DNA of 64,000 nucleotides from Candidatus Methanoplasma glyptotermitis (lineage in GTDB: Archaea; Thermoplasmatota; Thermoplasmata; Methanomassiliicoccales; Methanomethylophilaceae), in NCBI GenBank assembly GCA_031267895.1, contig JAIRYF010000051.1, forward strand, positions 1,561 through 65,560. The letters are read 5' to 3'. Positions within the stretch are counted from its first letter, which is position 1. The number at the start of each line of letters is the position of its first letter. Below the pieces are notes generated by a model, which saw only the letters and a program-made list of their open reading frames with translations, was not told where the DNA came from and made no database searches. The translations under genes and the position numbers were made by a program. Positions 15,302 to 51,367 of the stretch are shown piece after piece.

Positions 15302-15535
15302 TCAGACGAGCACGCCGACCGCAACCACGGCGATCACGCTGACGGCCGTCAGCAGGATAAAAACTCTGTTATTCTTTTTTTCTTTCCCGACCCTCGCCTG
15401 TTCTTTGTAGTAGCAATCCTCGGAGCAGAATGCCTGATCAAACGGCACGGGATCCCCGCAGAACCGGCAGTGATCGTGTTCGGGAAGTTTTGTCGGCATC
15501 TCTGTCTCATAGACATGATAGTTTAAATCTGTCAC
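15302..15535 (-). CDS. small zinc-ribbon membrane protein (DUF2116-like)
   Basis: 77 aa. CRFCGDPVPFDQAFCSEDC (CxxC...CxxxC) followed by a basic linker and a C-terminal TM helix FILLTAVSVIAVVAVGVLV. Confidence 0.6.
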   Translation of the reverse strand: MTDLNYHVYETEMPTKLPEHDHCRFCGDPVPFDQAFCSEDCYYKEQARVGKEKKNNRVFILLTAVSVIAVVAVGVLV

Positions 15536-15905
15536 TGTCCGTCAACTCTGCGGAGCAGCTTCAGACAGCAAAGGTGCCGGTCCGACCGATATAAACTTTA
15601 AATAGACTTATTTCAAGACATCCAAGGGATTCAGACCGTACTTCTTTAAGCTCGAAACCCCTCCCGAAAGCGGTGTTTTTGTGCTGCGCAACACAAATAT
15701 GATCGAACAGTTGCGGTACCGCGCAGATGATGCGCCTCCGCACAGGCCCGGCGGCATAGACTCGGAGGATTACGACAGATCGATCCGGCTGACAGAAACA
15801 GTCTGCAGGTGTCTTGATATATCCGGGTGCGGTCCGCAGCGACTTCTGCACAAATCCGGGAAGAGTCCGTCAATCGTTTATACGGAAAGATAAGTACGGC
15901 GGTCC

Positions 15906-16670
15906 GTGAGAGTAAGGGAATACGACAGCGACAGATTCGACAGAATGAGAAGAATAGATTGGCTGGACATCGACAGAATACACGGATCGAAATGTCTGGT
16001 GGTCGGGGCCGGAGCTCTTGGAAACGAGGTCGTAAAATGCATGCTGCTGGCCGGATTCGGAAACATATCCATCGCGGATATGGATAAGATTGTGAGATCG
16101 AACATGAGCCGGTGCGTTTTCTTCAGAGAAGGCGATGAACAAAAAAACAAAGCAGAGGTTATCGCCGAGATGGCACACAACCTCTGTCCTGAAACAAAAA
16201 TCGCCCCGATTGTATCAAGAATACAGGATCTGGAGGACTGGAATTTCGATCTTGTATTCGGATGTCTTGACAACATATCCGCAAGACTGCACGTGAACTC
16301 CCATGCAAGATATCACGGCATACCCTACGTCGACGGCGCAACCGACGGATTCAGAGGAAAGGCGCAGGTCGTCCTGGATTCAGGACCGTGTCTGGAGTGC
16401 GGGATGAACGGCAGCCACATGAAACTCATCGACGAGAGATTCTCGTGCACCGGAGGCGGGACTGTCTTCGTGCCGAAGCTGGCATCCGAGATAACCACAA
16501 CCTCAGTCATAGCTGCTATCCAGGTGAGGGAGGCAATGAAAATACTGTCCGGCAGGAGGGACCTGTGCATAAGGAACGTAATATACTATGACGGAATCCT
16601 GGGAACAATGGAGTGTCTCGAGATCCCGGAGGACAGAGACTGTCCGAATCACCTCTCAGGAAGGAATTGA
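15906..16670 (+). CDS. ThiF/MoeB-type E1-like ubiquitin-activating enzyme
   Basis: 254 aa. RFDRM (RYxRQ-like) N-terminal motif, Rossmann motif VVGAGALGNEV, DxD ADMDKI, CLEC and CPNH Zn-site-like pairs, and a candidate catalytic Cys in RFSCTGGG. GTG start; an alternative ATG at 15945 would delete the RFDRM motif. Confidence 0.85.
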   Translation: MRVREYDSDRFDRMRRIDWLDIDRIHGSKCLVVGAGALGNEVVKCMLLAGFGNISIADMDKIVRSNMSRCVFFREGDEQKNKAEVIAEMAHNLCPETKIAPIVSRIQDLEDWNFDLVFGCLDNISARLHVNSHARYHGIPYVDGATDGFRGKAQVVLDSGPCLECGMNGSHMKLIDERFSCTGGGTVFVPKLASEITTTSVIAAIQVREAMKILSGRRDLCIRNVIYYDGILGTMECLEIPEDRDCPNHLSGRN

Positions 16671-16671
16671 A

Positions 16672-16914
16672 ATGACCGTCAGAGTCACCGTGGTTAACAC
16701 ACTCAACAGCTCATCCATACGGATGGAATTGGAGTCTTACGAGTCCGTAGAGGACATAATCGATACAGCCGCAGAGTACTGGGGAAAGGATTCCGGTGCA
16801 TATGTTCTCAGAAAGGGATCAAAACTTCTCTGCAAGAGCCAGAGCATCGATGAGATAAACCTCAGAGATGATGACATCATAGAGATGATTCCCGATCCCG
16901 AAGGCGGGAGCTGA
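16672..16914 (+). CDS. ubiquitin-like small protein (80 aa) ending ...PDPEGGS
   Basis: ATG lies 1 nt after the E1 stop. The size and alternating hydrophobic pattern fit a beta-grasp fold. A C-terminal Gly-Gly (16903-16908) is followed by one Ser and then TGA. Confidence 0.75.
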   Translation: MTVRVTVVNTLNSSSIRMELESYESVEDIIDTAAEYWGKDSGAYVLRKGSKLLCKSQSIDEINLRDDDIIEMIPDPEGGS

Positions 16915-16915
16915 G

Positions 16916-17416
16916 ATGGGTCTGGTCAGGTCTGTACTGGTAAAAAGGATCGACAACGAGATCTTGGGGTTGAACAGTCACCTTGGCATTGATGTTCCTT
17001 CCGTTCCAGAGAACGCAAAGTTCCCGATTGAGGTGAGCATAGTCCTGAGGAACACCCCTGCCAGAATATCGAAGGAAAAGACCGCCAATGACCATGTTTT
17101 TGTTATAGTCATATCCGAGGAATATCCGTATGAGAGGCCAAGAGCAAAGTGGATGACGCCTGTCTTCCACCCGAACATAATGATGCCGGAAGACGGAGGT
17201 TTCGTCTGTGTCAAGACCCTGGATAACTGGTCATTCGGGTCGTCTCTGCTGTCATTCGTAAAAGGCGTGGAACAGCTGATATCAGATCCCAATCCCATGA
17301 ACCCATACGGCACCGATTCATGCATGGAAGCGGCCAGATGGTATCTTGACAACAAACCGAAATTCGAGGCCAAAATAAGATACGGTGGGAACGATGCCGA
17401 AGATAATTTCCTCTGA
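16916..17416 (+). CDS. UBC-fold E2 ubiquitin-conjugating enzyme
   Basis: 166 aa. Canonical FHPNI (HPN at 17168-17176) followed by GGFVCVKTLDNW with the candidate catalytic Cys98 (17207-17209). ATG lies 1 nt after the Ubl stop. Confidence 0.85.
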   Translation: MGLVRSVLVKRIDNEILGLNSHLGIDVPSVPENAKFPIEVSIVLRNTPARISKEKTANDHVFVIVISEEYPYERPRAKWMTPVFHPNIMMPEDGGFVCVKTLDNWSFGSSLLSFVKGVEQLISDPNPMNPYGTDSCMEAARWYLDNKPKFEAKIRYGGNDAEDNFL

Positions 17417-17894
17417 CCCGTACGAGGCTGAGTTCGGGGTAAGACCCGTGAGGGGTGTGTCTCTCTTTGTAAGGGAATTCGTAATAGACTTGATAACAGC
17501 ACATGCCGAAGAAGGATATCTCAAAAACAAAGAAGTCATGGGACTGCTGACAGGCGACATCCTGAGAGATGATATGGGAATGTATGTTAAGGTCACGAAT
17601 ACCGCCACTTCGGACCTGGATGCCGACGAGGCAAGCGTAAGATTCAGTAAAGATTCGATAGAAAAACTATTCAGATCAATAGACGACTGCGGCGGAAGCT
17701 CGATAGTCGGGTGGTATCACTCCCATCTGGGAATAGGATGCTACCTCTCGGATGTGGACATAAAAACCCACACGGGCATATTCGGCATGGATGTTGGATA
17801 CGCTCTGGTTATTGATCCGGCGGGGTCCGAACTCGCATCGTTTTCGTGCATCGGCGGCCTGCCTGAGAAAGTTTCCATGATAATTCTGACGTGA
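17385..17894 (+). CDS. JAMM/MPN+ metalloprotease (Rpn11/JAB-like deubiquitinase)
   Basis: 169 aa. Conserved Glu in KEVMGLL and a complete HxHx7Sx2D motif, HSHLGIGCYLSDVD (17718-17759). Overlaps the E2 3' end by about 23-32 nt, depending on whether the start is 17385 or 17394. Confidence 0.85.
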   Translation: MGTMPKIISSDPYEAEFGVRPVRGVSLFVREFVIDLITAHAEEGYLKNKEVMGLLTGDILRDDMGMYVKVTNTATSDLDADEASVRFSKDSIEKLFRSIDDCGGSSIVGWYHSHLGIGCYLSDVDIKTHTGIFGMDVGYALVIDPAGSELASFSCIGGLPEKVSMIILT

Positions 17895-21636: not shown

Positions 21637-22188
21637 ATGACATATTGTTCAAAATGCGGAAAGGAGACCGCCGGCGGATCGACATTCTGCTCCAGTTGTG
21701 GAGCGGCATTGTCAGGTCCGTCCGGAAGATACGAAGACCAAAACTACGGTCAGCAGAATCAGTACGAAAGCAGCAACTATAACCAGAATCAAGACTGGAG
21801 CAATAACTTCGGCCCCAACCAGGGGGGGGGGCCGCGGAATAACACATCCTCATTGGGCGGGACGCTGACGGTCATTCTTGTGCTGGGAATCCTGTGGGCA
21901 ATCATTTCGATTATATCTGGATTGGCCTGTATCTTCGGGGGCGGTTTCTTATTCTCTTTCTTCGCCGGACCTGTGCTGATCATCATCGGCATACTGAGTT
22001 TCGTGAGCGGACTATTTGCCCTGCTGAGCTGCATGAACATATTCAGACTGGAGAAACACCACGATGCCTACATCTACTGTCTGATCGGCTCCATATTGGG
22101 TCTGATTACAGGCGGTATCATTGCCGGGGCAATCGGAATAGCTTTTGCGTTTATTCTGAAAAAAGAACAGTACAGATTCAAATCATAA
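21637..22188 (+). CDS. zinc-ribbon / Q,N-rich / multi-TM membrane protein, function unknown
   Basis: 183 aa. N-terminal CSKCG...CSSCG zinc ribbon, a QN-rich linker, then 3-4 TM helices. AAGGAG lies 9 nt upstream of the ATG. The ORF contains the G10 tract. Confidence 0.6.
   Translation: MTYCSKCGKETAGGSTFCSSCGAALSGPSGRYEDQNYGQQNQYESSNYNQNQDWSNNFGPNQGGGPRNNTSSLGGTLTVILVLGILWAIISIISGLACIFGGGFLFSFFAGPVLIIIGILSFVSGLFALLSCMNIFRLEKHHDAYIYCLIGSILGLITGGIIAGAIGIAFAFILKKEQYRFKS
21822..21831. repeat. G10 homopolymer tract inside the CDS 21637-22188 (codons Q-G-G-G-P)
   Basis: Read directly from the sequence: aaccaGGGGGGGGGGccgcgg. Confidence 0.95.
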
Positions 22189-22194
22189 ACCAAG

Positions 22195-22224
22195 AGGCCG
22201 CAATGGCCTATTTCTTTTATTTTC
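22195..22224 (+). terminator. hairpin plus T-rich tract downstream of 21637-22188
   Basis: AGGCC-GCAAT-GGCCT followed by ATTTCTTTTATTTTC, starting 7 nt after the TAA stop. Confidence 0.4.
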
Positions 22225-22276
22225 AAATTCGGCAATTGCCAGAATGCCCGCCTCACTTTCTGTCATTTATCCTGAC

Positions 22277-22287
22277 TTTGACAGTTG
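22277..22287. repeat. TTTGACAGTTG motif copy 1 (inverted copy at 22622-22632; 1-mismatch direct copy at 22432-22442)
   Basis: Read directly from the sequence, within a non-coding stretch of about 690 bp. Confidence 0.8.
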
Positions 22288-22879
22288 GGATTTTTCAACA
22301 TATGTTTTGACGAAAATCTGACAGAAGAATCGTCCCGCCGACACATGTCCGAATCAGATCAGCCATATAGTCAATGTATGTCTTCTTATGTGTTTCATTT
22401 GGAAAATAATTGTGTTTATTTCCGAAAAGAATTTGACAGCTGCGTCTCTCTGTGTTGTTACAACAGCTGTTTTCCGGATAAGGACTCCTTATACTGCTGT
22501 TTCTTTTCTCTGTGTATCAGGATCTGTTGCAAAAAAACAAGAATTGTGTGCTGATATATGTTAAAATCGCTGCCTGATGAGATGTTTCCGGATCGCGGGA
22601 TCACTGTCTGACCGCAAAACTCAACTGTCAAATTATCAGAAGAATGAAATTTCAAGGCGACTGTCGAAGTCAGGTTATTACATTAGGACGGAAAAACAGA
22701 GAAAGGGGCATTTGAGGGTTTCTTTCTGCAATCGGATATTCCGATGCCGAAGGCAACCCGCGATGCCTAAAATGAAGAGTATCCAACACAACAATCCGGG
22801 GTCAGCCGAGGCACCGAATATCTGACGCAGGCACCAAACTCAATCCTAACCCGCAAATAGTTGGTTGGGGGCGATGGTT

Positions 22880-23881
22880 TCAGTCCATTGCCCTGTTGAA
22901 TGCAAGTTCTGTAATGATCCTGCAGTTTTCCATAATTCTTTTCGAAGAAAACAGAACGATTTCCCGGACATACTCTGACGCGTTGTGCGCTTTGATATTC
23001 GACACAACCTTATCATTGATGCTCGAAATCACCCCATCTATATCTGAGATCATCTGTTCTGCCAATACGATATCTTTGTTTATCCAGCTCTCTATCGAGT
23101 TCGTCAGAATTTCAGAGATGCCTTCCCCTGTCTTATAAATGCACTCATCTACGCGGCGAAGGTCGCCGACATCCGATATCAAGACCAGGTAATTTGATGT
23201 AGAAATAGCATGGTTCCCTATGCTCACAAGTACTCTTGAGAGCGATAGGCATGATGAGAGCTCGTATAGAGGCACATTCATCTTTCGAGATGCGGTCGCA
23301 TCTTTCATAGCTATGTTACACTGCCTCGCGATCAGACCATGAACCCTGTTTATCTCCGCATATCTGAAATTCATATCCCTTAGGCTATCAACATCTCCGG
23401 TGAATGCCGCATCATACATATCATGAATCATACCCTTGACCAGCAATCTCATTTTTTCGACTATCTTTTTGGTGTTGACCGCACTTTGTTCCATAAGATC
23501 GGAAATAAGAATGTGAGAATCATCAGCCTCTATAGTCTCAAGACCTATAGCAGTCTGCACGAAGCTCGATGAAGCCGTTGTGACCACGCTTGGCATCGGC
23601 GGGTCCGATGTTACGACGATTGTCATGTGTCCGGCAATGTATGCACCAACCAGCTGTCTGTACAGAAACCCACGGGTCTTTATGTTTGTGGCATCAATGA
23701 CCTTAGTGGTGCGCTTAATTTCCGGAGCGGAACCGGTTGGGTACAGCGTCAGACTCCCATCCGGCTGAGCCTGAAGGCCCACAGAGTCATTTTTCTTCAA
23801 ACCTACGGAATTCCCCCACTCTTTGGGGAGAGTGATCATGAACGAGGAACCCCCCGTTATTTGCACACGTCTCAAATCCAT
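22880..23881 (-). CDS. AbrB/SpoVT-domain + PhoU-domain phosphate-uptake-regulator-like protein
   Basis: The N-terminus MDLRRVQITGGSSFMITLPKEWGNSVGLKK is a SpoVT/AbrB swapped-hairpin type, followed by two helical PhoU-like repeats. Start placed at the Met of MDLRRV. Confidence 0.78.
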   Translation of the reverse strand: MDLRRVQITGGSSFMITLPKEWGNSVGLKKNDSVGLQAQPDGSLTLYPTGSAPEIKRTTKVIDATNIKTRGFLYRQLVGAYIAGHMTIVVTSDPPMPSVVTTASSSFVQTAIGLETIEADDSHILISDLMEQSAVNTKKIVEKMRLLVKGMIHDMYDAAFTGDVDSLRDMNFRYAEINRVHGLIARQCNIAMKDATASRKMNVPLYELSSCLSLSRVLVSIGNHAISTSNYLVLISDVGDLRRVDECIYKTGEGISEILTNSIESWINKDIVLAEQMISDIDGVISSINDKVVSNIKAHNASEYVREIVLFSSKRIMENCRIITELAFNRAMD

Positions 23882-24313
23882 ACCACAGACAATAACCAAC
23901 ATAGCATATAAAAATATCCATAAAATCTGGAAATAAATATATTCAATATTACTATAAATGATGCCTCAATATGTAGATACAAATAGATTTAATACATACT
24001 AAATCATCATATCTTATTTAATTTATTGCACACATTATACAACTCCGCAGAAGTCAAACACACATCCAGATATACGCTGCGACGGTCTGATTCGGATCAC
24101 AGTCTGTGTACTTGCCGAGATCGATTGCCCGGACCATCTTCCGAATATATACACCCGATGGCCGCTGACAAAAACCATTAACACTCTCCATAATCATGAG
24201 TAAAAGCGTTACTACCGCTGTTTATTGATTTTGCAATCTTCTCTTTTGGGTGTTAACTCGGCTGTCACACACATCTTACATGGACTACATCCCTTCATCG
24301 ACTGAATGGCCCC

Positions 24314-27215: not shown

Positions 27216-27481
27216 CCTATATGATCTGGCTAAGACAAAAAATCCCGTTTGCGCGGGTGTTCGGAAAAGAACCGATGCTTCAGATTGCTGTGTTTCAAGG
27301 AAGCGGGCCTTTTAATTGGGCGGTCTTTTGGGCGATATACGAGCCGGTGCCGTTACGTGTTTGCATACATTAACACAATGATGTGTTCAGCGGCATATGG
27401 GTCCATTACCTAGCTGTGAATATAATCAATGGATTGCAACCTCAAAGAAGGTTTATCTTTGACGTCCGCATAACCCGGTCG

Positions 27482-29416
27482 ATGAAAAAAGAGATGAGCT
27501 CTTTCGATGTCCGTTCCGTCGTTTCCGAGATGGCATCGCTTGAAGGGGCGCACATCGACAAGATATTCCACTGGGGCGCGGGAAACGTTCTGTTCCGTCT
27601 CAATGTGCAGGGCGACGGAAAACGAGAGTTGTTCTTCCGAGACAAGAAATGGCTTTATCTGTCGCCGGACCGTCCGGAAACTCCCGAGACCCCCACATCA
27701 TTCGCCACGTTTCTGAGGAAGTATATAACCAATGCAAGGATAGGAAAGACCGTCCAGGCGGGGTTTGACAGAATAACAGTCACGGATGTCTTAAAGTCCA
27801 ATTCAGAGTACAAACTGATCTTCGAGATGTTCGGAGGGGGCAACGTGCTGCTGGTCCTTGACGGCAAGATAGTCAACTGTCTTACGCACAAAACATGGAG
27901 AGACCGCTCCACCCGCCCGGGGGAGTACTACGTAATGCCGAAGAGCAGATTCAATCCGCTGGAATCCTCTTTCGAAGACTTCAAGAATGTGTTCCGTTCC
28001 TCCGAATCGGACACAGTCAGAACCTTGGCGACCGTCGTGAACCTCGGCGGCCAATATTCAGAGGAGATCTGCAAGAGAAGCGGAGTAGACAAGAGCCGTC
28101 TGTCAACGGAGATCGACGACGATGACATCAGGAAGATGTATTCATCGCTGGAGGAGATAATCGGTTCTGTTCTCGGAGCCGGCGAACCTACAGTATTCAG
28201 AAAAGACGGGGAGATTATAGATGTCGCTCCGGTAGACCTCAGGATATACGAGGATGCCGAGTCGGAAAGGGTACCGGCCATGTCGCTGGCCATTGATGCC
28301 CTCATGCGGGAGATGAAGGAGACCGAAGAAGAGACTTACGTAGATCCGGAGATGGAGAAGCTAAGGAAAAGGATACAAAAGCAGACGGAGACCGTCAGCG
28401 AATACAGGATGGAATCCGAGGACCTGAAGAACAGGGCCGATGCGGTGTATATGGAGTATCAGAAGATTAACGATCTCCTAACGGTTCTGGAACGGAAATC
28501 CAAAGAACTGACCTGGGAGAAGCTCGCAGAAGGAGCGAGAAAGATACCGTTCGTTACAGACATAGATCCTCCCAAAAACACAGTATCGGTCGGAATTTCC
28601 GGCCTTAAAATCTCTCTGAACTACACGAAGGGAATAGATGCGAATGCATCGGACATATATCAGAAAAGCAAAGACATCGGAGAGAAGTCCAAAAGGGCAG
28701 AGGATGCATTGAAGGAGAGCGTGGCCGAGAGGGACAAAAAGCAGAAAGGCTTCGATAAGGCCAGGGCACTCGCGCTGAACAAGGTCCAGCCTACCAAGCA
28801 GTTCTGGTTCGAGAGATACAAATGGTTCATAACCTCATCCGGAAAACTGGTCATCGCGGGAAGGGACGCACACTCCAACGACAATATCGTCAAGAAGCAC
28901 TTGAAGGAGAAGGATGTCTTCGTCCATGCAGATGTTCACGGCGCACCCTCTGTGATTCTGAAAGAAGGTTCCGCCGCCACGCAGGAGGAGTTGCGCGAGG
29001 CATGCACATTCGCGCTGACGCAGTCCAAGGCATGGGTTGCCGCACTCATGGAAGGCGCAGCATTCTGGGCATATCCGGATCAGGTGAGCAAAACGCCAAA
29101 CCCCGGAGAGTTTGTTCCGAGGGGTGCGTTCATAGTCAGAGGCAAAAGAAATTATGAATACCATCTGAAGATGGAACTCGGAATAGGAGAGATAGACTAT
29201 CAGGGTGCGATGAAGATAATGTGCGGCCCCGTCGATCTCTTCAAAGATTCGGAGAGATACATGGTTCTTAATCCCGGGAGGGGCAAAAGCGGAAGGAAAT
29301 CCGGAGATATCGCCAAGGACTTCCGGGTTCCGGAAGAGGAAATTTCAAGAATACTCCCTCCCGGCGATGTCGAGGCCGTGAAAAAGGTGTGGATCGAAAG
29401 GACAGACGGACAGTGA
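27482..29416 (+). CDS. NFACT-family ribosome quality control protein (RqcH/Rqc2/FbpA-like)
   Basis: NFACT-N-like N-terminus (FDVRSVVSEMASLEGAHIDKI), a long coiled-coil middle section, and a DUF814/NFACT-R motif VFVHADVHGAPSVILK. Start placed at ATG 27482. Confidence 0.85.
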   Translation: MKKEMSSFDVRSVVSEMASLEGAHIDKIFHWGAGNVLFRLNVQGDGKRELFFRDKKWLYLSPDRPETPETPTSFATFLRKYITNARIGKTVQAGFDRITVTDVLKSNSEYKLIFEMFGGGNVLLVLDGKIVNCLTHKTWRDRSTRPGEYYVMPKSRFNPLESSFEDFKNVFRSSESDTVRTLATVVNLGGQYSEEICKRSGVDKSRLSTEIDDDDIRKMYSSLEEIIGSVLGAGEPTVFRKDGEIIDVAPVDLRIYEDAESERVPAMSLAIDALMREMKETEEETYVDPEMEKLRKRIQKQTETVSEYRMESEDLKNRADAVYMEYQKINDLLTVLERKSKELTWEKLAEGARKIPFVTDIDPPKNTVSVGISGLKISLNYTKGIDANASDIYQKSKDIGEKSKRAEDALKESVAERDKKQKGFDKARALALNKVQPTKQFWFERYKWFITSSGKLVIAGRDAHSNDNIVKKHLKEKDVFVHADVHGAPSVILKEGSAATQEELREACTFALTQSKAWVAALMEGAAFWAYPDQVSKTPNPGEFVPRGAFIVRGKRNYEYHLKMELGIGEIDYQGAMKIMCGPVDLFKDSERYMVLNPGRGKSGRKSGDIAKDFRVPEEEISRILPPGDVEAVKKVWIERTDGQ

Positions 29417-44891: not shown

Positions 44892-45680
44892 TCAGCGCCT
44901 CGATTTCGGTTTGCCGTAGTTCTTCACAGGCTTACGGTAAAGGTAGATCAGTATGACAACCAGCACTACCAGGAAAACAGCCAAAAAGATGTTGACCAGC
45001 CCGTAATCATAATGACCGACATAGAACTCTTTTTCTCCCCCTGATATTACTTCTTTGTAGTCTCCGATGTTTTCATCCCCGGCAACCACATTGAAGGTAT
45101 GCTTCCCGTTTGAGAGATTTTCGGCCACCCATTCGTATGAGACGGTCTCCGATTCTCCGGCGACTACCGACACCAGAGTTTTGCTGTCCTCAACGAACCC
45201 TCCGTCAACGTAGAAATAGACTGCAAAGTCAGTGAAATCTACTTTGCTGTTGTTTTTAAGAACAGCGGTCAGAGTTATCGGCTCCAGAACAGTGACTGTC
45301 TGCGTCCTCTCTGTCACAACAGGATCCTCATCGTCCTTATTCTCCGTAAAGGTAACAGTCAGAACATACCTGCCCGCAGTTTCCGGTGCGGTCACGGTCA
45401 GTTCTGTCTCCACGCCGTTCGAGAGATTTCCCGATGAAGGAAATACGGCACCCGCCCGGCTACCGCTGCTGTTCTTAAGATCGGCTGTGTATGATATTCC
45501 CAGCGTTTCGAACTCCTCGGATTCGAAGAACATTATCTGGTATGTGAGGTCGCCGTTGACCTTCACCGCATTCTTCTCTCCCTTTATAACGGAACTCGCT
45601 CCGTCAACATCCGATGAGTCGTCAAGCAGGATCGCTCCTGCTGCGAAGACCATCGCAAACACTGCTATCGCAGTGATCAC
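44892..45680 (-). CDS. secreted or membrane-anchored beta-rich surface protein
   Basis: N-terminal hydrophobic signal/anchor (ITAIAVFAMVFAAGAILL), a beta-rich body, then a C-terminal TM helix with a basic tail (FLAVFLVVLVVILIYLYRKPVKNYGKPKSRR). Start proposed at GTG 45680, which forms a GTGA overlap with the upstream stop. Alternative ATGs at 45719 and 45746 lie inside the upstream gene. Confidence 0.6.
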   Translation of the reverse strand: MITAIAVFAMVFAAGAILLDDSSDVDGASSVIKGEKNAVKVNGDLTYQIMFFESEEFETLGISYTADLKNSSGSRAGAVFPSSGNLSNGVETELTVTAPETAGRYVLTVTFTENKDDEDPVVTERTQTVTVLEPITLTAVLKNNSKVDFTDFAVYFYVDGGFVEDSKTLVSVVAGESETVSYEWVAENLSNGKHTFNVVAGDENIGDYKEVISGGEKEFYVGHYDYGLVNIFLAVFLVVLVVILIYLYRKPVKNYGKPKSRR

Positions 45681-48600
45681 TTTCTGCGTACAAACACCCC
45701 CTTCTTCATTCCAAACCATGCCATGGCTATAAGAGCCAGGATACATAGTGCTATCAGTGCCGCAGACGATGCGGGCATCGAACCAGAATCATCGTATACA
45801 TTGCTGCCGGAAGCAGACATATCTTCGGATTCCATCTCGGCAGGCTGTGCGTTCATGCTGAATGTCGCATTATTGCCTACAATGCTTACTCCGCTGCTGT
45901 TGGTGCTGAGGTTCTGACCCTGCGCCGTAACAGTTACATTGACAACCGGGACGCTGGTGTCGGTGGCATCCCTGCACATCAGCTTTATGTATATCACAGT
46001 GGAACCGTACCCGCTGACCTTATAGGAATTCGCTCCTGCCGCAGAAGATATGTTTCCTTCGCCTTTGTCAGAGTATACTACCGACCACTTGCCGCTCCCG
46101 CCGGATATCAAAGCCGATATCGACACGGTCTTGAGGTAGTTGTCATGATTGGTTATCGTCACCGCATACATGTACTCATACCCGCTGACAGCATCGACAA
46201 ACGCATCCTCCGTACCGCTTACATCGACATATGTGTCTGTAGTCCTGATCGGGGACATCGCACTGCCGTCCAAAACATAAGTTCCGACGCTGCTGCCGTT
46301 AAGCGATGTCACGGTAACGGACAGATTCTCATTGCCAGCACCGATATTTTCGGCATCATAAGATCCCGACACGGTGACGGTACCGGATGACTTCGCACCG
46401 ACCGTCAGTGTATACTCTTTATCAAGAATCCACGCCGACCCTGCTTTGACGATGTACGTCACACCGAAGTCGCCCGTGTTTTTGACCGTCAAGATGAACG
46501 ACCCGCGCCCGTTCGAGAAGCTGAAGCCGCTTCCGGATAGGTCAAGTCCGGACTGAGATGACGATGTTGTCGCCGGGAAATGTATCGATGCTCCGTCGGT
46601 CACTTCGGCTTCCGACATTGATGCCGTTCCTGTGTACCTGTACTCTGTGCCATTTACGGTCTTGCCGAGACTGGCACTTAGCTGCATGGCTTTTCCGGCA
46701 GGCACGGTAATTTCAAATATCCCGTCGGTCACTGTGAACGGTATCGTCACATTCCCATATGTCACTCTTAGTTCTCCGTTCGCCGTCACTCCGAGATATC
46801 CCTTAACGATCGCCTTATCGGCTTTGTCCGACAGATTCAGGGTCACCGGGCCTGTTGCGCTGGCGACCGATGCATATGCGATCCTCTCGGTTCCTTCCCC
46901 GGCACCGGACACTGCTTTGAAGTAGAACCCTTTGCCCCTCTCCAGATAGTAGACTAGAGGGTTATCGGAATCCACAAAATAACCGCCTGCCTCCTCATCG
47001 GTAGGTGTTACAGTTATCTCATCCGTGGCCGAAGCATTCAGTTCCACCCTCACCACATTCGTGACCTCTATGTTCAGAGAACCGCTGTGTCCCGGATACA
47101 CATACACCGTTCCGCTGTAGTAATACCCCGTGCTGCCCTTTATGACAGCGGTGTACTGGCCCGGTATCACAGAGGTCAGACCCGACACATTGTATGTTGT
47201 CGATGAACTGTTGTACAGAGTGATACTGACAGGCACGCCATTGGATACACTGACCGTCTTCACGTAACTGTCCGAATCGTCTGACTCATTAGCCGCAATA
47301 CTCCACGTGTAAGACGTGTCGCCTGTCCCTGCCGAGATATCCGTCGACCGTTCTTCCATGTGGAACCTGGCTGTATCGAATCCGGATATACTCATGACTG
47401 CCTTGTTTCCCTCCGGGACGGTGAATATAGCCTTCCCGTCCGAGTTCGTTTTCACAGTTATGCTGTATTCGGTGTTGCCAACCGAAATACTCATATTCAC
47501 ATCGGCAAAAGCTATCCCTCTGGTACTGGATGAGGACATGTTCGTCCTGTAGCTGACCGTTATAGTAATGTCGCGGGACTTTGACATAGAGATGTTTCCC
47601 AGATCCGTGTCCCCGGAGACCGTCACCGTTGATATTGATGAACTTGATGATCCGAAGAGATACATCGTGTATGTTCCCGCCGGCAGCCTGACATCGAATT
47701 TGCCGTCTTCGCCTGACGTGAATATGAATGTCGCCCCGCCGTCTCCTATAAACGATACAGTGGCTGACACTTTCTCACCCGCACTGTCCTCCGAGACCCC
47801 TTTGACACTGTATCCGGCTGCACCGGCAAGCGACACACTGCTGCCGGCCGAAACTCCGTAGTACACCATATTTCCGCTCACCGCGTATGCGGTGTACTTC
47901 TCGCCGATGCCCGCACTGCCGTTGATAGTCGGAACGGCAAGACTCGCCGATGACGACGAAGTCACGAAACCGTAAGACATCAGCGTAATCAGACTTCCGG
48001 ACGGTGCTCCCGTCACGGAGATACTCCTTGAATCATACAGAGTCAGCGATGCGGATTTAGACCCATTGCTCGAAACCGTCACGCTTGGATTGGATACGGA
48101 GACCTTGCCATCGGCCGCATAAATCACATATGTCGACGGCACGACGGACATTTCGATCTTTCCGTCGGTGGCACCCGCCACACTCGCACGGAATTCGGCA
48201 CCGGTCAACGTGTCTCTTGCAACTATCGTTCCGGTCTTCGCATTCGCACCTACATCATCTGTTGCCGTGACGGTTATCTTTCCGGATGTGGCCGACATTT
48301 GGAATCCTGCATTCGGTCCCGCATTTGCGGTCACGCTTGCCGTATTTATCGTCGTTCCTGACGGCGAATAGACGGTGACTTCATATATGTCTGGGATCAC
48401 ATTTCCGAACACGAAAATTCCATTCGAGACCTTTGTTTCGTATTTTTCACCAGATGCCTTCCCCGTCATTCCGACATAGCAGTCCTCCGTGTACGGATCG
48501 GTTCCCACGACGACACTCCCGGACAGATTTGTCACAGGTATGTCCAACCGCGAATCGGCAGATATCATGTTCCAGCGTGTATCGATCACAGATCCTGTCA

Positions 48601-51367
48601 CAATGGTATCGGTTCCAGATGAGAACACAACATAGTATTCGCCGCTAACCGGTACCGACACATCATACGAGCCGTTGGCTTTTGTGAATACAGTCGATTT
48701 TTTCACGTACCCTGCGATTCCGGATGTGTCATAGTCTGTCTTCACAAACACCGACACCTGTATGCCGCCAGCCCCTTTTGCCCCATTCGGCGAAACGTAG
48801 CTGACAGTCCCGGAGACCTCTTCGGTCATCGTAGAGTCGTATTCCATCAGCACGACACCGTTGACGTAGTTCACAAGTCCGCCGTCCTCACTCTGACGTT
48901 TCATGGCTTCGAATGCGTCCATGTCTTCCCACCCGTCGGATGAACCGTCAGCCTTGCTGTCCGGATTGTAATAAACATGCCAGTACGCTATCTTGTAGTC
49001 GGATAGCCCGTACCCCGGATTCGCTTTGACAGACCCGTCGCTCAAGGCAAGCGCGTTAAGATAAGTCGTGGATGAGGTGTATCCCGCCTCTGCGGGGGAC
49101 ATTCCTATGAGCGATTTCCAAAAGAAAGTATCGTACATAGCATCCGTATACGCCGCATAACCGCTCTCCACACCATACGTATAGTAGTAATTGGGGGCAC
49201 CGTATCCGTCCATGTTTTTGCTCCCGAGATAGGCCACACTTGAGAAGTACGTCCCATCGCCGTAGTAGAGGGGCAGCATGCTCCTGTCTGCAAGCACATA
49301 TTTTATCGACTTCCCGCTTGTGCCGCATATACTGTCATACAGAGAATTGATGCTCTGTTCGGATATCGTTGCCGTTATGTACCTGATGAGCACAGCATAC
49401 AGTGCATTTTCTTCGGTGATGCTCGGGCTGACCCCCGGATACAGAGCAACATTATTCTTCACTTCCGTTACGGCGGTCGAAGGATCATCAGTGTATCCCT
49501 TAATCTTACTGTAGTCCAGACCTGCGGCCCTTATCGCAGACTCAAACGATGCCAGACCGTCTGCAAGCACCAGGCGTATTGCCATAGCGGCTGTCGCTAC
49601 GGAGCTGCTCGTCGCAAGGATCGCCGCAGACAGAGCGGACGCACCGCCGCCGTACGGGTCTGTGACTGAATCGAAACCTCCGTTCGATGCTGAATTCACA
49701 GAATAGTTCAGCCAAGCCAGCAATGCACCGTCTTTTTCGATGCCATTGTAATAATCCCACATTTTGTCAACTGAGTTCACGTCATTCGTTATTATGGTGT
49801 ATCCGAGGCCTCCGAAGTATCCGTCGCCTTCCGAATTCGTAGGTATGCCTGCATCGACTGCATACACCGCATTCGGCACCGCGACCAAAGCCACGATCGC
49901 TATGGTTACGGCCAAAGGAATCGGTTTCAGAGCTTTCCTCAGTGCGTATTTGATGCCATTGCCTCTCATGTCCGCAAAGTAGCCCCTCAGATCCACCCTT
50001 CTTATCACCATAAGGATCACAGCCGCCGATGCGACTGCGAAACCCATGCCCGCTATAGCGGCATACGATGTCGAATACCACCCTATGCAGAACATTGCGA
50101 GGATCCATAACATGGTAAACGTATACTTTCTGGAATCCATGTTTCCGCGGTACTTGTACAGCATGTACAGGAACATTACGAGAGGCAGCCATACAGTCAC
50201 CCATCCGAAGAACGATGCCATCGATGATATTGATGTCCTTGATGCTCCCGAAACCAGACCGGACATCTGTCCGCCCGTGTATACAGAGTTTCCGTTCACG
50301 ACCGCAGAGAACAGTTCGCCCGACGCAAAGAAGAGCACTGCGAGTACGATTGCCGCAATGATCAGCGTAACGGGTATCATGAGCACCCATGACCTGCCGG
50401 CGGTCTTGCTAAGGAAAACCGTAAGAGCAACGGACAGAAAAGCCAGTATAAACGGTCCCGAAAATATCTGGACCCACAGTCCTGCCGCAAGGTAATAGGG
50501 TGCCGATATCAGCACACCCACCAGTATAACCAACGAGTACACTCCGACCGTCGGTATCATCTCTTTGGATCTGAGGCGGTCGATCACCGCCTGGGCGGCC
50601 ATAAAGAACACCAGCATCAGAAGAATTACGCGGAATTGATTCCATGACAGTGCTATCATCGCAAACAGTATTCCTGCGGCGAGCGCATTTTTGAGCAGGG
50701 TTCTGTCGCCTATCATTGCTCTGAACCCGTCGGGCTGCGTCTTGTCGCAGCAGTCAAGTGCTTTGAGCAGGAAATACAGCATGAAGGAGAACAGGAACCC
50801 TACGAACGCGTACTCCGTGCCGTTCGAGAAGGATGTGGTCATCACCATCAGCGCGAAGAACGCATACAAGAGCGCTGCCAGCAGACCTATCTTCTCATCA
50901 CTGAACATTTTCCTACCGATCAGATACACAGGCCAGCATGTAAGGGCCGCGAATATCGGTGCCGAGAACGCCAATGTTCCGGCCGCTGCGGTTCCCGCGG
51001 AAATGCCAAACATCGACACTATTCCTGCAACACCTGACAGGATTATATCCATCAGCGGGGGGTAGACGTTAACGGAACCGTATGGGTAATTGAGGGCCGG
51101 GTCAGTGAACGTGAACGAACCGCCGAGGATGTTCTCGATTATGTGAACGTGAATCGATGCTCCCGACCCGCCGGACAGAGCAAAATCGCTCCCGGCGGAC
51201 ACACCGTATGCGAAAACAAATCTCATGACAAAAGCCACGACCATGATCGCTAGCAGTGTTATCAGGCGCCATTCTCTCTTAAACCATACTCCCTGGCCGT
51301 CATCCGATGCCGGCAGGAAGCCCCCATCCGAGACGGGTCTGGCTGACCTAACTCCAAATTTACGCAT
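45677..51367 (-). CDS. 1896-aa fusion protein: STT3/AglB-like GT-C membrane domain, multiple CarboxypepD_reg-like beta-sandwich repeats, C-terminal TM anchor
   Basis: Residues about 30-505 are polytopic membrane and carry the AglB-like EL1 block IIENILGG..FTDPALNYPYGSVNVYPPLMD. At least 6 repeats follow the pattern DGKFDVRLPAGTYTMYL / NGIFVFGNVIPDIYEVTVY / DGIFEITVPAGKAMQL. The C-terminus ALIALCILALIAMAWFGMKKGVFVRRK is a TM anchor. Confidence 0.8.
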   Translation of the reverse strand: MRKFGVRSARPVSDGGFLPASDDGQGVWFKREWRLITLLAIMVVAFVMRFVFAYGVSAGSDFALSGGSGASIHVHIIENILGGSFTFTDPALNYPYGSVNVYPPLMDIILSGVAGIVSMFGISAGTAAAGTLAFSAPIFAALTCWPVYLIGRKMFSDEKIGLLAALLYAFFALMVMTTSFSNGTEYAFVGFLFSFMLYFLLKALDCCDKTQPDGFRAMIGDRTLLKNALAAGILFAMIALSWNQFRVILLMLVFFMAAQAVIDRLRSKEMIPTVGVYSLVILVGVLISAPYYLAAGLWVQIFSGPFILAFLSVALTVFLSKTAGRSWVLMIPVTLIIAAIVLAVLFFASGELFSAVVNGNSVYTGGQMSGLVSGASRTSISSMASFFGWVTVWLPLVMFLYMLYKYRGNMDSRKYTFTMLWILAMFCIGWYSTSYAAIAGMGFAVASAAVILMVIRRVDLRGYFADMRGNGIKYALRKALKPIPLAVTIAIVALVAVPNAVYAVDAGIPTNSEGDGYFGGLGYTIITNDVNSVDKMWDYYNGIEKDGALLAWLNYSVNSASNGGFDSVTDPYGGGASALSAAILATSSSVATAAMAIRLVLADGLASFESAIRAAGLDYSKIKGYTDDPSTAVTEVKNNVALYPGVSPSITEENALYAVLIRYITATISEQSINSLYDSICGTSGKSIKYVLADRSMLPLYYGDGTYFSSVAYLGSKNMDGYGAPNYYYTYGVESGYAAYTDAMYDTFFWKSLIGMSPAEAGYTSSTTYLNALALSDGSVKANPGYGLSDYKIAYWHVYYNPDSKADGSSDGWEDMDAFEAMKRQSEDGGLVNYVNGVVLMEYDSTMTEEVSGTVSYVSPNGAKGAGGIQVSVFVKTDYDTSGIAGYVKKSTVFTKANGSYDVSVPVSGEYYVVFSSGTDTIVTGSVIDTRWNMISADSRLDIPVTNLSGSVVVGTDPYTEDCYVGMTGKASGEKYETKVSNGIFVFGNVIPDIYEVTVYSPSGTTINTASVTANAGPNAGFQMSATSGKITVTATDDVGANAKTGTIVARDTLTGAEFRASVAGATDGKIEMSVVPSTYVIYAADGKVSVSNPSVTVSSNGSKSASLTLYDSRSISVTGAPSGSLITLMSYGFVTSSSSASLAVPTINGSAGIGEKYTAYAVSGNMVYYGVSAGSSVSLAGAAGYSVKGVSEDSAGEKVSATVSFIGDGGATFIFTSGEDGKFDVRLPAGTYTMYLFGSSSSSISTVTVSGDTDLGNISMSKSRDITITVSYRTNMSSSSTRGIAFADVNMSISVGNTEYSITVKTNSDGKAIFTVPEGNKAVMSISGFDTARFHMEERSTDISAGTGDTSYTWSIAANESDDSDSYVKTVSVSNGVPVSITLYNSSSTTYNVSGLTSVIPGQYTAVIKGSTGYYYSGTVYVYPGHSGSLNIEVTNVVRVELNASATDEITVTPTDEEAGGYFVDSDNPLVYYLERGKGFYFKAVSGAGEGTERIAYASVASATGPVTLNLSDKADKAIVKGYLGVTANGELRVTYGNVTIPFTVTDGIFEITVPAGKAMQLSASLGKTVNGTEYRYTGTASMSEAEVTDGASIHFPATTSSSQSGLDLSGSGFSFSNGRGSFILTVKNTGDFGVTYIVKAGSAWILDKEYTLTVGAKSSGTVTVSGSYDAENIGAGNENLSVTVTSLNGSSVGTYVLDGSAMSPIRTTDTYVDVSGTEDAFVDAVSGYEYMYAVTITNHDNYLKTVSISALISGGSGKWSVVYSDKGEGNISSAAGANSYKVSGYGSTVIYIKLMCRDATDTSVPVVNVTVTAQGQNLSTNSSGVSIVGNNATFSMNAQPAEMESEDMSASGSNVYDDSGSMPASSAALIALCILALIAMAWFGMKKGVFVRRK

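Follow-up and report, generated by a model that had tools for sequence, protein, structure and literature searches.

Does a methanogen of the Thermoplasmata carry the means to tag its own proteins through a dedicated conjugating enzyme, in the manner of eukaryotes? The question is raised by a stretch of 64,000 nucleotides of the Candidatus Methanoplasma glyptotermitis genome (contig JAIRYF010000051.1), hereafter the window, in which four consecutive genes at positions 15906-17894 of the + strand were read, in an initial annotation made from the sequence alone, as a eukaryote-type ubiquitin cascade composed of an activating enzyme (E1), a ubiquitin-like protein (Ubl), a conjugating enzyme (E2), and a metalloprotease of the JAMM type. 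All four components are present, but the label does not hold in the full sense in which it applies to Candidatus Caldiarchaeum, as the operon has no ligase (E3) of the RING type and its E1 has a single domain. The reading that we favour, and consider likely, is that of a chromosomal, vertically inherited, E3-less module for ubiquitin-like protein conjugation that belongs to the Methanomassiliicoccales, the order of Ca. Methanoplasma.

Four genes and their products

The genes follow one another in the order E1-Ubl-E2-JAMM with no extra gene in between, and they are as tightly packed as had been noticed at the outset: the E1 and Ubl genes are separated by 1 nt, the Ubl and E2 genes by another 1 nt, and the E2 and JAMM genes overlap, by 32 nt if the latter starts at a GTG or by 23 nt if it starts at an ATG. 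They are translationally coupled, and a chance origin of the arrangement is excluded because ~80 other genomes show it too, and the catalytic residues are retained in them.

The first gene (15906..16670, +), which opens with a GTG, encodes a ThiF-type E1 of 254 residues that matches the Pfam ThiF family at 2.9e-44, above the gathering score, with a single ThiF domain at residues 19-247. The motifs RFDRM, VVGAGALGNEV, and RFSCTGGG are there as first described, along with GxGxxG at residues 33-39, RSNxxR at residues 64-69, and D122, whereas the two CxxC pairs reported at the same time prove to be one CxxC (C162-C165) plus C246-x-x-H249. C162xxC165 and C246xxH249 probably form a zinc site, and Cys181, within RFSCTGGG, is the candidate catalytic cysteine. 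Among 62 orthologues, C162, C165, H171, C181, and C246 are invariant and H249 is kept in 98%, the motif CxxC-x5-H-x(7-12)-C is intact at 66 of 66 loci, and GxGxxG, S65-N66...R69, and D122 are likewise invariant among relatives. Family profiles of the E1, the JAMM protease, and the E2 were each searched against all PDB sequences. That of the E1 reached 139 bits with yeast Uba1 and 118-123 bits with UBA7, UBA3, SAE2, and UBA6, followed by MoeB (101 bits), ThiF (99), and UBA5 (63); the alignments span only residues ~9-169 with the eukaryotic E1 chains and residues 9-250 with MoeB.

The second gene (16672..16914, +) encodes the precursor of a ubiquitin-fold modifier. The longest open reading frame (ORF) of its frame begins at 16588, and the ATG at 16672 gives a product of 80 residues, the length found in all relatives. 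That this protein would be a beta-grasp was an early supposition with which AlphaFold and Foldseek agree: the model (predicted local distance difference test score, pLDDT, 88.5) has the strand-strand-helix-strand-strand-strand order of that fold, and Foldseek assigns it a probability of 1.0 with template modelling (TM) scores of 0.80-0.88 to SUMO1, Hub1, ubiquitin, and the Caldiarchaeum ubiquitin CsUb (6fnn/6fno). The superpositions have a root-mean-square deviation of mostly 1.2-1.6 Å, with TM scores of 0.86-0.88 to CsUb and of 0.80-0.85 to ubiquitin and SUMO. None of the 50 Foldseek matches listed is a MoaD or a ThiS, and SUMO, Hub1, ubiquitin, and other ubiquitin-type folds are found instead.

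The C-terminus of the window Ubl, noted from the start to be Gly-Gly-Ser, reads PDPEGG and then Ser. Over 71 loci PDPEGG is invariant, and what comes after it is not conserved: nothing follows the two glycines in 31 loci, one residue in 33, and 5-14 residues in 7, and where only one residue follows, it is hypervariable (S, A, N, R, F, V, C, and others), the pattern expected of a pro-peptide that is discarded. The last arginine of the protein is R65, and therefore trypsin would leave on a modified lysine a remnant of 14 residues, DDDIIEMIPDPEGG, and not di-Gly.

The third gene (16916..17416, +) encodes an E2 of 166 residues. The assignment of this protein to the UBC fold is borne out by Pfam UQ_con (5.3e-13, 49.2 bits vs a cut-off of 27) and by its AlphaFold model (pLDDT 88.6), for which the top 50 Foldseek matches listed are all eukaryotic E2s at probability 1.0. 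The motif stretch FHPNI...GGFVCVKTLDNW is present; the protein has H85-P86-N87, the catalytic Cys98, W105, and a conserved arginine, R11, in the N-terminal helix. The HPN...Cys signature is intact in 82 of 82 loci, and R11, H60, W105, and C136 are also invariant among relatives. The best match among PDB sequences is Rad6/UBE2B (3.9e-11), with Cys98 aligned to its catalytic cysteine, and the family profile ranks Rad6/UBE2A/B first (57 bits), ahead of UBE2N, Ubc9, and others, with eukaryotic proteins in all of the first 60 places. These rankings are the reason for calling the E2 eukaryote-like and, with the absence of any BilB or Cap2 match in PADLOC, they support the original suggestion that it is of the eukaryotic HPN type rather than of the divergent bacterial type.

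The fourth gene (17385..17894, +) encodes a JAMM/MPN+ metalloprotease of the Rpn11/CSN5 type. The GTG at 17385 would give 169 residues and the ATG at 17394, which is preceded by GGTGGG, 166 residues; the protein of Ca. Methanoplasma termitum is called at 166 residues, and the ATG appears more likely as the start. The match to Pfam JAB (2.8e-13) is above the gathering score, and the motif said to be complete is so, as E50...H112-x-H114-x7-S122-x2-D125, with HxHx7Sx2D intact in 78 of 79 loci. The family profile scores 92 bits with Rpn11, 79 with the Caldiarchaeum Rpn11 homologue, and 73 with CSN5, followed by BRCC36/AMSH (40-46) and a Mov34/MPN/PAD-1 family chain (2kcq, 22).

Some variation among the loci bears on what this protease does. 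At three of them the MPN protein lacks the HxH ligands (L032, 5497-5793; L054, 1814-2221, which reads GWFRSVEGG; and L074), and in all three the Ubl ends exactly at GG (Fisher p ~0.08); a degenerate MPN protein beside a modifier in its mature form fits a processing role of the JAMM protease, at the level of an anecdote. Trimming of the pro-peptide as its sole role is rejected, as 24 loci with a Ubl that ends at GG keep an intact JAMM motif, and because they do so deconjugation is probably the conserved function.

As for signals outside the coding regions, a TATA-like hexamer, TTTATA, can be read at 15877..15882 (+), ~26 nt upstream of the GTG of the E1 gene, and may be the archaeal promoter of a leaderless operon transcript. 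An Rfam scan of the window returned four tRNAs only, none inside the operon.

Conservation and setting of the locus

The window Ubl is 100% identical to a 'hypothetical protein' from a metagenome-assembled genome of a Candidatus Methanoplasma sp., and 106 close relatives of the E2 were found, for which every taxon name given is of the Methanomassiliicoccales type or broader (Thermoplasmatales/Euryarchaeota); many of them are already labelled 'ubiquitin-conjugating enzyme E2' by NCBI or JGI, and most genes of the set have a label from the database pipelines. When one genome was scanned for each GTDB species, 182 loci were obtained, of which the best 80, save for one contig filed under Faecalibacterium, have Methanomassiliicoccales, Thermoplasmata, or broader archaeal names. 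In a tblastn comparison of the window proteins with these loci, the order E1-Ubl-E2-JAMM on a single strand is kept with few exceptions. The co-conservation of the four genes thus extends across ~80 species-level relatives, and the Thermoplasmata or methanogen-like background, surmised before the origin of the DNA was given, is that of the Methanomassiliicoccales.

The chromosomal position is conserved as well. Downstream of the operon lie convergent genes for a SIS protein and a xylose-isomerase-like TIM-barrel protein and then the L18e-L13-S9-RpoN cluster, and the same gene order and flanks are found in the closed 1.49-Mb genome of Ca. M. termitum. In Ca. Sysuiplasma, another lineage of the Thermoplasmatota, the same four genes occupy the same position, whereas Theionarchaea archaeon DG-70 (L084) has the different order JAB-ThiF-Ubl-UQ_con, with two unannotated proteins and a Band_7 protein as neighbours. 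The Faecalibacterium contig (L054, CAVHHN010000062.1, filed as Faecalibacterium sp. CAG:74) encodes an archaeal E1-Ubl-E2 with the SIS and TIM-barrel flanks and is mis-binned.

The guanine-plus-cytosine (GC) content is flat across the operon and equal to that of its flanks. Against close relatives, the ratio of nonsynonymous to synonymous divergence (dN/dS) of the operon genes is 0.02-0.15, in keeping with purifying selection, a range that is qualitative as dS is saturated (0.9 to >4, some values undefined) and of which only the ranking of dN is used; dN is lowest for the Ubl and highest for the JAMM protease. The rest of the window consists of core housekeeping genes (RNA polymerase B/A'/A'', GatD/GatE, purine and lysine synthesis, ribosomal proteins). 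The operon is probably a vertically inherited housekeeping module, neither a defence island nor a contaminant.

Further afield, the E2 profile gave 4816 matches in 1.84 billion representative sequences, among which two cluster look-ups named Ca. Sysuiplasma and Theionarchaea only, and in a further homologue search with the same profile the best 120 of 449 matches were all in-family. Among metagenomic relatives of the E2 from other uncultured organisms (P0199, P0246, P0187, P0208, P0215, P0219) there are fusions. They include Ubl-E2 fusions, in which PDPxGG runs directly into the E2, and E2-JAMM fusions, one of which has a His in place of the catalytic Cys; also seen is a family of 223-232 residues in which the active site is altered and the N-terminus is extended by ~80 residues. 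The Ubl-E2 and E2-JAMM fusions suggest that modules of this kind form a wider radiation, most of it unexplored.

A few other features of the window deserve mention. The gene at 15302-15535 (-), divergent from that of the E1, encodes a DUF2116 protein of 77 residues with a hydrophobic C-terminal segment, and this 'probable treble clef' zinc protein was considered as a surrogate E3. The candidate was rejected because it travels with a pterin-binding gene and not with the operon: it stays with the former in L027 and L042, is not beside the operon in Methanomassiliicoccaceae, and is probably not an operon component. About 10 kb from the operon, at 27383-29416 (+), is a gene for an NFACT/Rqc2-type protein (NFACT_N plus NFACT-R_1), of a family that in eukaryotes partners a ubiquitin ligase in ribosome-associated quality control. 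The largest ORF, of 1896 residues at 45677-51367 (-), has no Pfam match at E <= 1e-4. Lastly, the GC content dips to 0.435 at 22001-24000, vs ~0.50-0.53 elsewhere, and the gene under the dip (22880-23902) has AbrB/MazE-like and PhoU domains.

A probable conjugation module and its alternatives

What is established above, namely the identity and fold of the domains, the catalytic residues, the structure of the operon, its conservation throughout the order, and purifying selection, leads us to infer the following course of events. The Ubl would be made as a precursor with one residue beyond Gly-Gly, which the Rpn11-like JAMM protease would cut off. The E1 would use ATP to adenylate the C-terminal glycine of the Ubl and would then bind the Ubl through a thioester at Cys181, which lies in the crossover loop; given its single adenylation domain, the E1 would probably act as a homodimer, as MoeB, ThiF, and UbaA do. 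The Ubl would then be handed to Cys98 of the E2, where the HPN asparagine would support the attack of a substrate lysine, and the E2 would modify its targets unaided or together with a partner whose gene lies elsewhere. The JAMM protease would also strip the tag, so that the mark would be reversible, and the role of the module would be one of housekeeping regulation or of protein turnover, and not of defence. The first and last steps have a precedent in the Rpn11 homologue of Caldiarchaeum, which cuts pro-ubiquitin precisely after GG and also deconjugates, the pro-form not being activated by E1 (PMC5654768, PMC6043591).

Several observations weigh against this reading. The resemblance of the Ubl to ubiquitin lies in the fold only: Pfam ubiquitin, PF00240, matches at 0.059 and 13.6 bits, below the threshold of 25.4, and BLASTP of the Ubl against human ubiquitin found no similarity. 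The E2 model reaches only moderate TM scores of 0.5-0.62 with solved E2s and shows no clear fourth helix. About 12 distant Thermoplasmata loci hold Ubl-E2-JAMM without an adjoining E1 (no E1 match lies upstream in L050, L058, L060, L061, L063, L068, L070-L072, L077, and L082); in L070 the place of the E1 is taken by a thioredoxin reductase and an ORF that, from the translations alone, reads like thioredoxin. In such loci the E1 may be encoded elsewhere. To these points are to be added the saturation of dS already mentioned and the nature of the E3 search, in which a cross-brace regular expression run over the six frames of the window and over 84 related loci (~10 kb) found no RING E3, with divergent, unlinked, or non-RING ligases beyond its reach. 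Finally, the size and domain layout of the E1 are those of the sulfur-transfer enzymes MoeB and ThiF, without a separate Cys domain and without a ubiquitin-fold domain (UFD). Bacterial BilABCD conjugates without an E3 and has an E1 that binds its E2 yet lacks a UFD (PMC10557695), and because it does both, E3-less conjugation and docking of an E2 on a UFD-less E1 are feasible.

The layout of the E1 leads to the first alternative, namely that the operon is a sulfur-carrier system, comparable to MoaD/MoeB, ThiS/ThiF, or the sulfur arm of SAMP/Urm1, in which the Ubl would be thiocarboxylated to serve in the synthesis of cofactors or the thiolation of tRNA, with conjugation of marginal importance. 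We consider this unlikely. MoeB aligns along the full length of this single-domain protein, but the E1 profile ranks the eukaryotic conjugation E1s 18-38 bits over MoeB and ThiF, and no rhodanese domain is present. The best NCBIfam matches of the E1 are indeed the ThiF, UbaA, and MoeB models, all of them, however, far under their cut-offs (90.5 bits vs 450 for SAMPActivE1UbaA). The Ubl has a weak match to the archaeal MoaD model of NCBIfam (0.066), to be set against the Foldseek matches listed above. Likewise, a ThiL-like AIR-synthase-related gene and the pterin-binding gene lie close by in the window, but these cofactor genes are on other transcripts and the linkage is not kept in Methanomassiliicoccaceae. 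An HPN/Cys E2 and an Rpn11-like protease, neither of which has a role in sulfur transfer, are strictly co-conserved with the E1 and the Ubl.

A second alternative, less likely still, is antiviral defence, with the operon as an archaeal counterpart of BilABCD or of CBASS Cap2/Cap3 that would tag viral structural proteins. The four components are the same as those of BilABCD, which likewise has no E3, but the gene order is unlike that of Bil and the E2 is of the HPN type vs the CEHH of BilB (PMC10557695). PADLOC does match the E1, with Cap2-type E1-E2 models at 4.6e-13 over the adenylation domain only and with BilD at 7.3e-5 over ~100 residues; the E2, however, gives no BilB or Cap2 match there, and the JAMM protease reaches only 0.014 with the JAB model. 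Assignment to a defence system was rejected, as the matches obtained are generic ones to an adenylation domain. Defence islands are typically patchy and mobile, whereas this locus is fixed between housekeeping genes throughout the order and in Ca. Sysuiplasma, has no adjacent capH/capP, nuclease, or other defence genes, and has the Ubl as its most conserved component, with no diversifying selection seen.

The best matches of three of the four proteins to eukaryotic entries and the Faecalibacterium label of L054 might bring an artefact to mind: contamination from a eukaryote or a bacterium, a single recent horizontal transfer, or pseudogenes in decay. The comparative data already refute it. The genes are intron-free, overlapping or 1 nt apart, and opened by GTG or ATG; their GC equals that of flanks that hold archaeal ribosomal and RNA polymerase genes; they have syntenic orthologues in ~80 species, the closed Ca. 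M. termitum genome among them; their dN/dS is well below 1; and L054 itself has archaeal flanks.

Returning to the conjugation module, we suggest, tentatively, that an HPN-type E2, a Ubl, and an Rpn11-like protease, operating without an E3 and with a minimal E1 that forms a homodimer, may have been ancestral to the Methanomassiliicoccales and Sysuiplasmatales, with relatives in the Theionarchaea.

Place among known systems

The initial annotation was aware of no such operon characterized in a Thermoplasmata background. This stands insofar as our search of the full-text literature turned up neither a description of the operon nor an experiment on it in Methanomassiliicoccales or Methanomethylophilaceae, the papers that pair these taxa with 'ubiquitin' being almost all about genetic code expansion; it needs qualification insofar as the operon is present order-wide, annotated, and noted in passing. 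Fort 2015 places the MPN protein of M. luminyensis, with that of Caldiarchaeum, among the Rpn11 orthologues, in a section on archaeal homologues that makes no mention of an operon (PMC4453063), and the Euryarchaeota entry in Grau-Bove 2015 is a Marine Group II genome only (PMC4327156). The system is known to annotation pipelines and to two papers in passing, and is uncharacterized.

Work on archaeal ubiquitylation has relied on recombinant proteins from uncultured Caldiarchaeum and Asgard genomes, and therefore the physiological substrates are not known. The Methanomassiliicoccales, in contrast, include cultured strains (Methanomassiliicoccus luminyensis) and abundant methanogens of the human and termite gut, and the same core chemistry appears fixed across the whole order. 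With cultivable members, in vivo study of archaeal ubiquitylation, including a possible link to proteasomal turnover, would come within reach for the first time. If the module is indeed ancestral to the Methanomassiliicoccales and Sysuiplasmatales, eukaryote-style E2-dependent tagging would not be confined to the TACK and Asgard archaea. The module is also a natural case in which to ask whether substrate choice by an HPN-type E2 is possible without an E3.

Among described systems, those of Caldiarchaeum and the Asgard archaea share with the window a compact archaeal operon and a ubiquitin-fold precursor with residues past Gly-Gly (PMC3082918, PMC5654768, PMC6043591), a UBC-fold E2 with HPN, catalytic Cys, and the arginine of the N-terminal helix, and a stand-alone Rpn11-like JAMM protease, for which CsRpn11 scores just below yeast Rpn11. 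The modifier, the UBC-fold E2, and the Rpn11-like MPN+ protein by which such systems are recognized are thus all found in the window operon. The differences are that the Caldiarchaeum operon has a RING-H2 E3, whereas the window operon and the 84 related loci gave no RING match; that the model of the Caldiarchaeum E1 comprises two Rossmann domains, one inactive and one active, a Cys domain, and a ubiquitin-fold domain (PMC5654768), vs the one adenylation domain found here; that the pro-peptide has 0-1 residue in most species here vs 9 in CsUb; and that the host is of a mesophilic lineage of euryarchaeal methanogens rather than of the TACK or Asgard archaea.

Closer in composition are the operons of the 'JAMM-3' proteins of Fuchs 2018, which are nearer to Rpn11/CSN5 than to JAMM-1 and JAMM-2, of the desampylase type, and are encoded with ubiquitin, E1, and E2 homologues and no E3 (PMC6043591). 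This is exactly the composition of the window operon, a match made by description, as the paper names no taxa; JAMM-3 is treated there in one paragraph and a cluster map, with no member characterized.

BilABCD is made of the same four elements (Ubl, E2, a JAB-type deubiquitinase, and E1), with no E3 and a UFD-less E1, and its deubiquitinase both matures the Ubl and deconjugates it, as proposed here for the JAMM protease (PMC10557695). Its genes, however, are ordered Ubl-E2-deubiquitinase-E1 vs E1-Ubl-E2-JAMM, the BilD E1 has inactive adenylation, active adenylation, and Cys domains vs a single adenylation domain in the window, and the CEHH motif of BilB, a Cys plus His, stands where the window E2 has HPN. 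Moreover, the Bil modifier often has 2-3 beta-grasp domains, and Bil operons are defence-associated, with capH/capP regulators (PMC10557695).

The SAMP/UbaA/JAMM1 system of Haloferax and other archaea, lastly, shares with the window a small single-domain E1, a beta-grasp modifier with a C-terminal GG, and removal by a JAMM protease. Sampylation has no E2, whereas the window operon has one; the window modifier has a ubiquitin/SUMO-like fold, unlike SAMP; and the NCBIfam cut-offs are missed widely, both for UbaA and for the desampylase (32.7 bits for the JAMM protease with desamp_Halo, vs 130). Because it combines a MoeB-sized, eukaryote-like E1 with a canonical E2 and an Rpn11-like protease, and has no E3, the module looks like a system of a simpler grade, and is a candidate for an intermediate that links sampylation, which does without an E2, to the full cascade of Caldiarchaeum and the eukaryotes.

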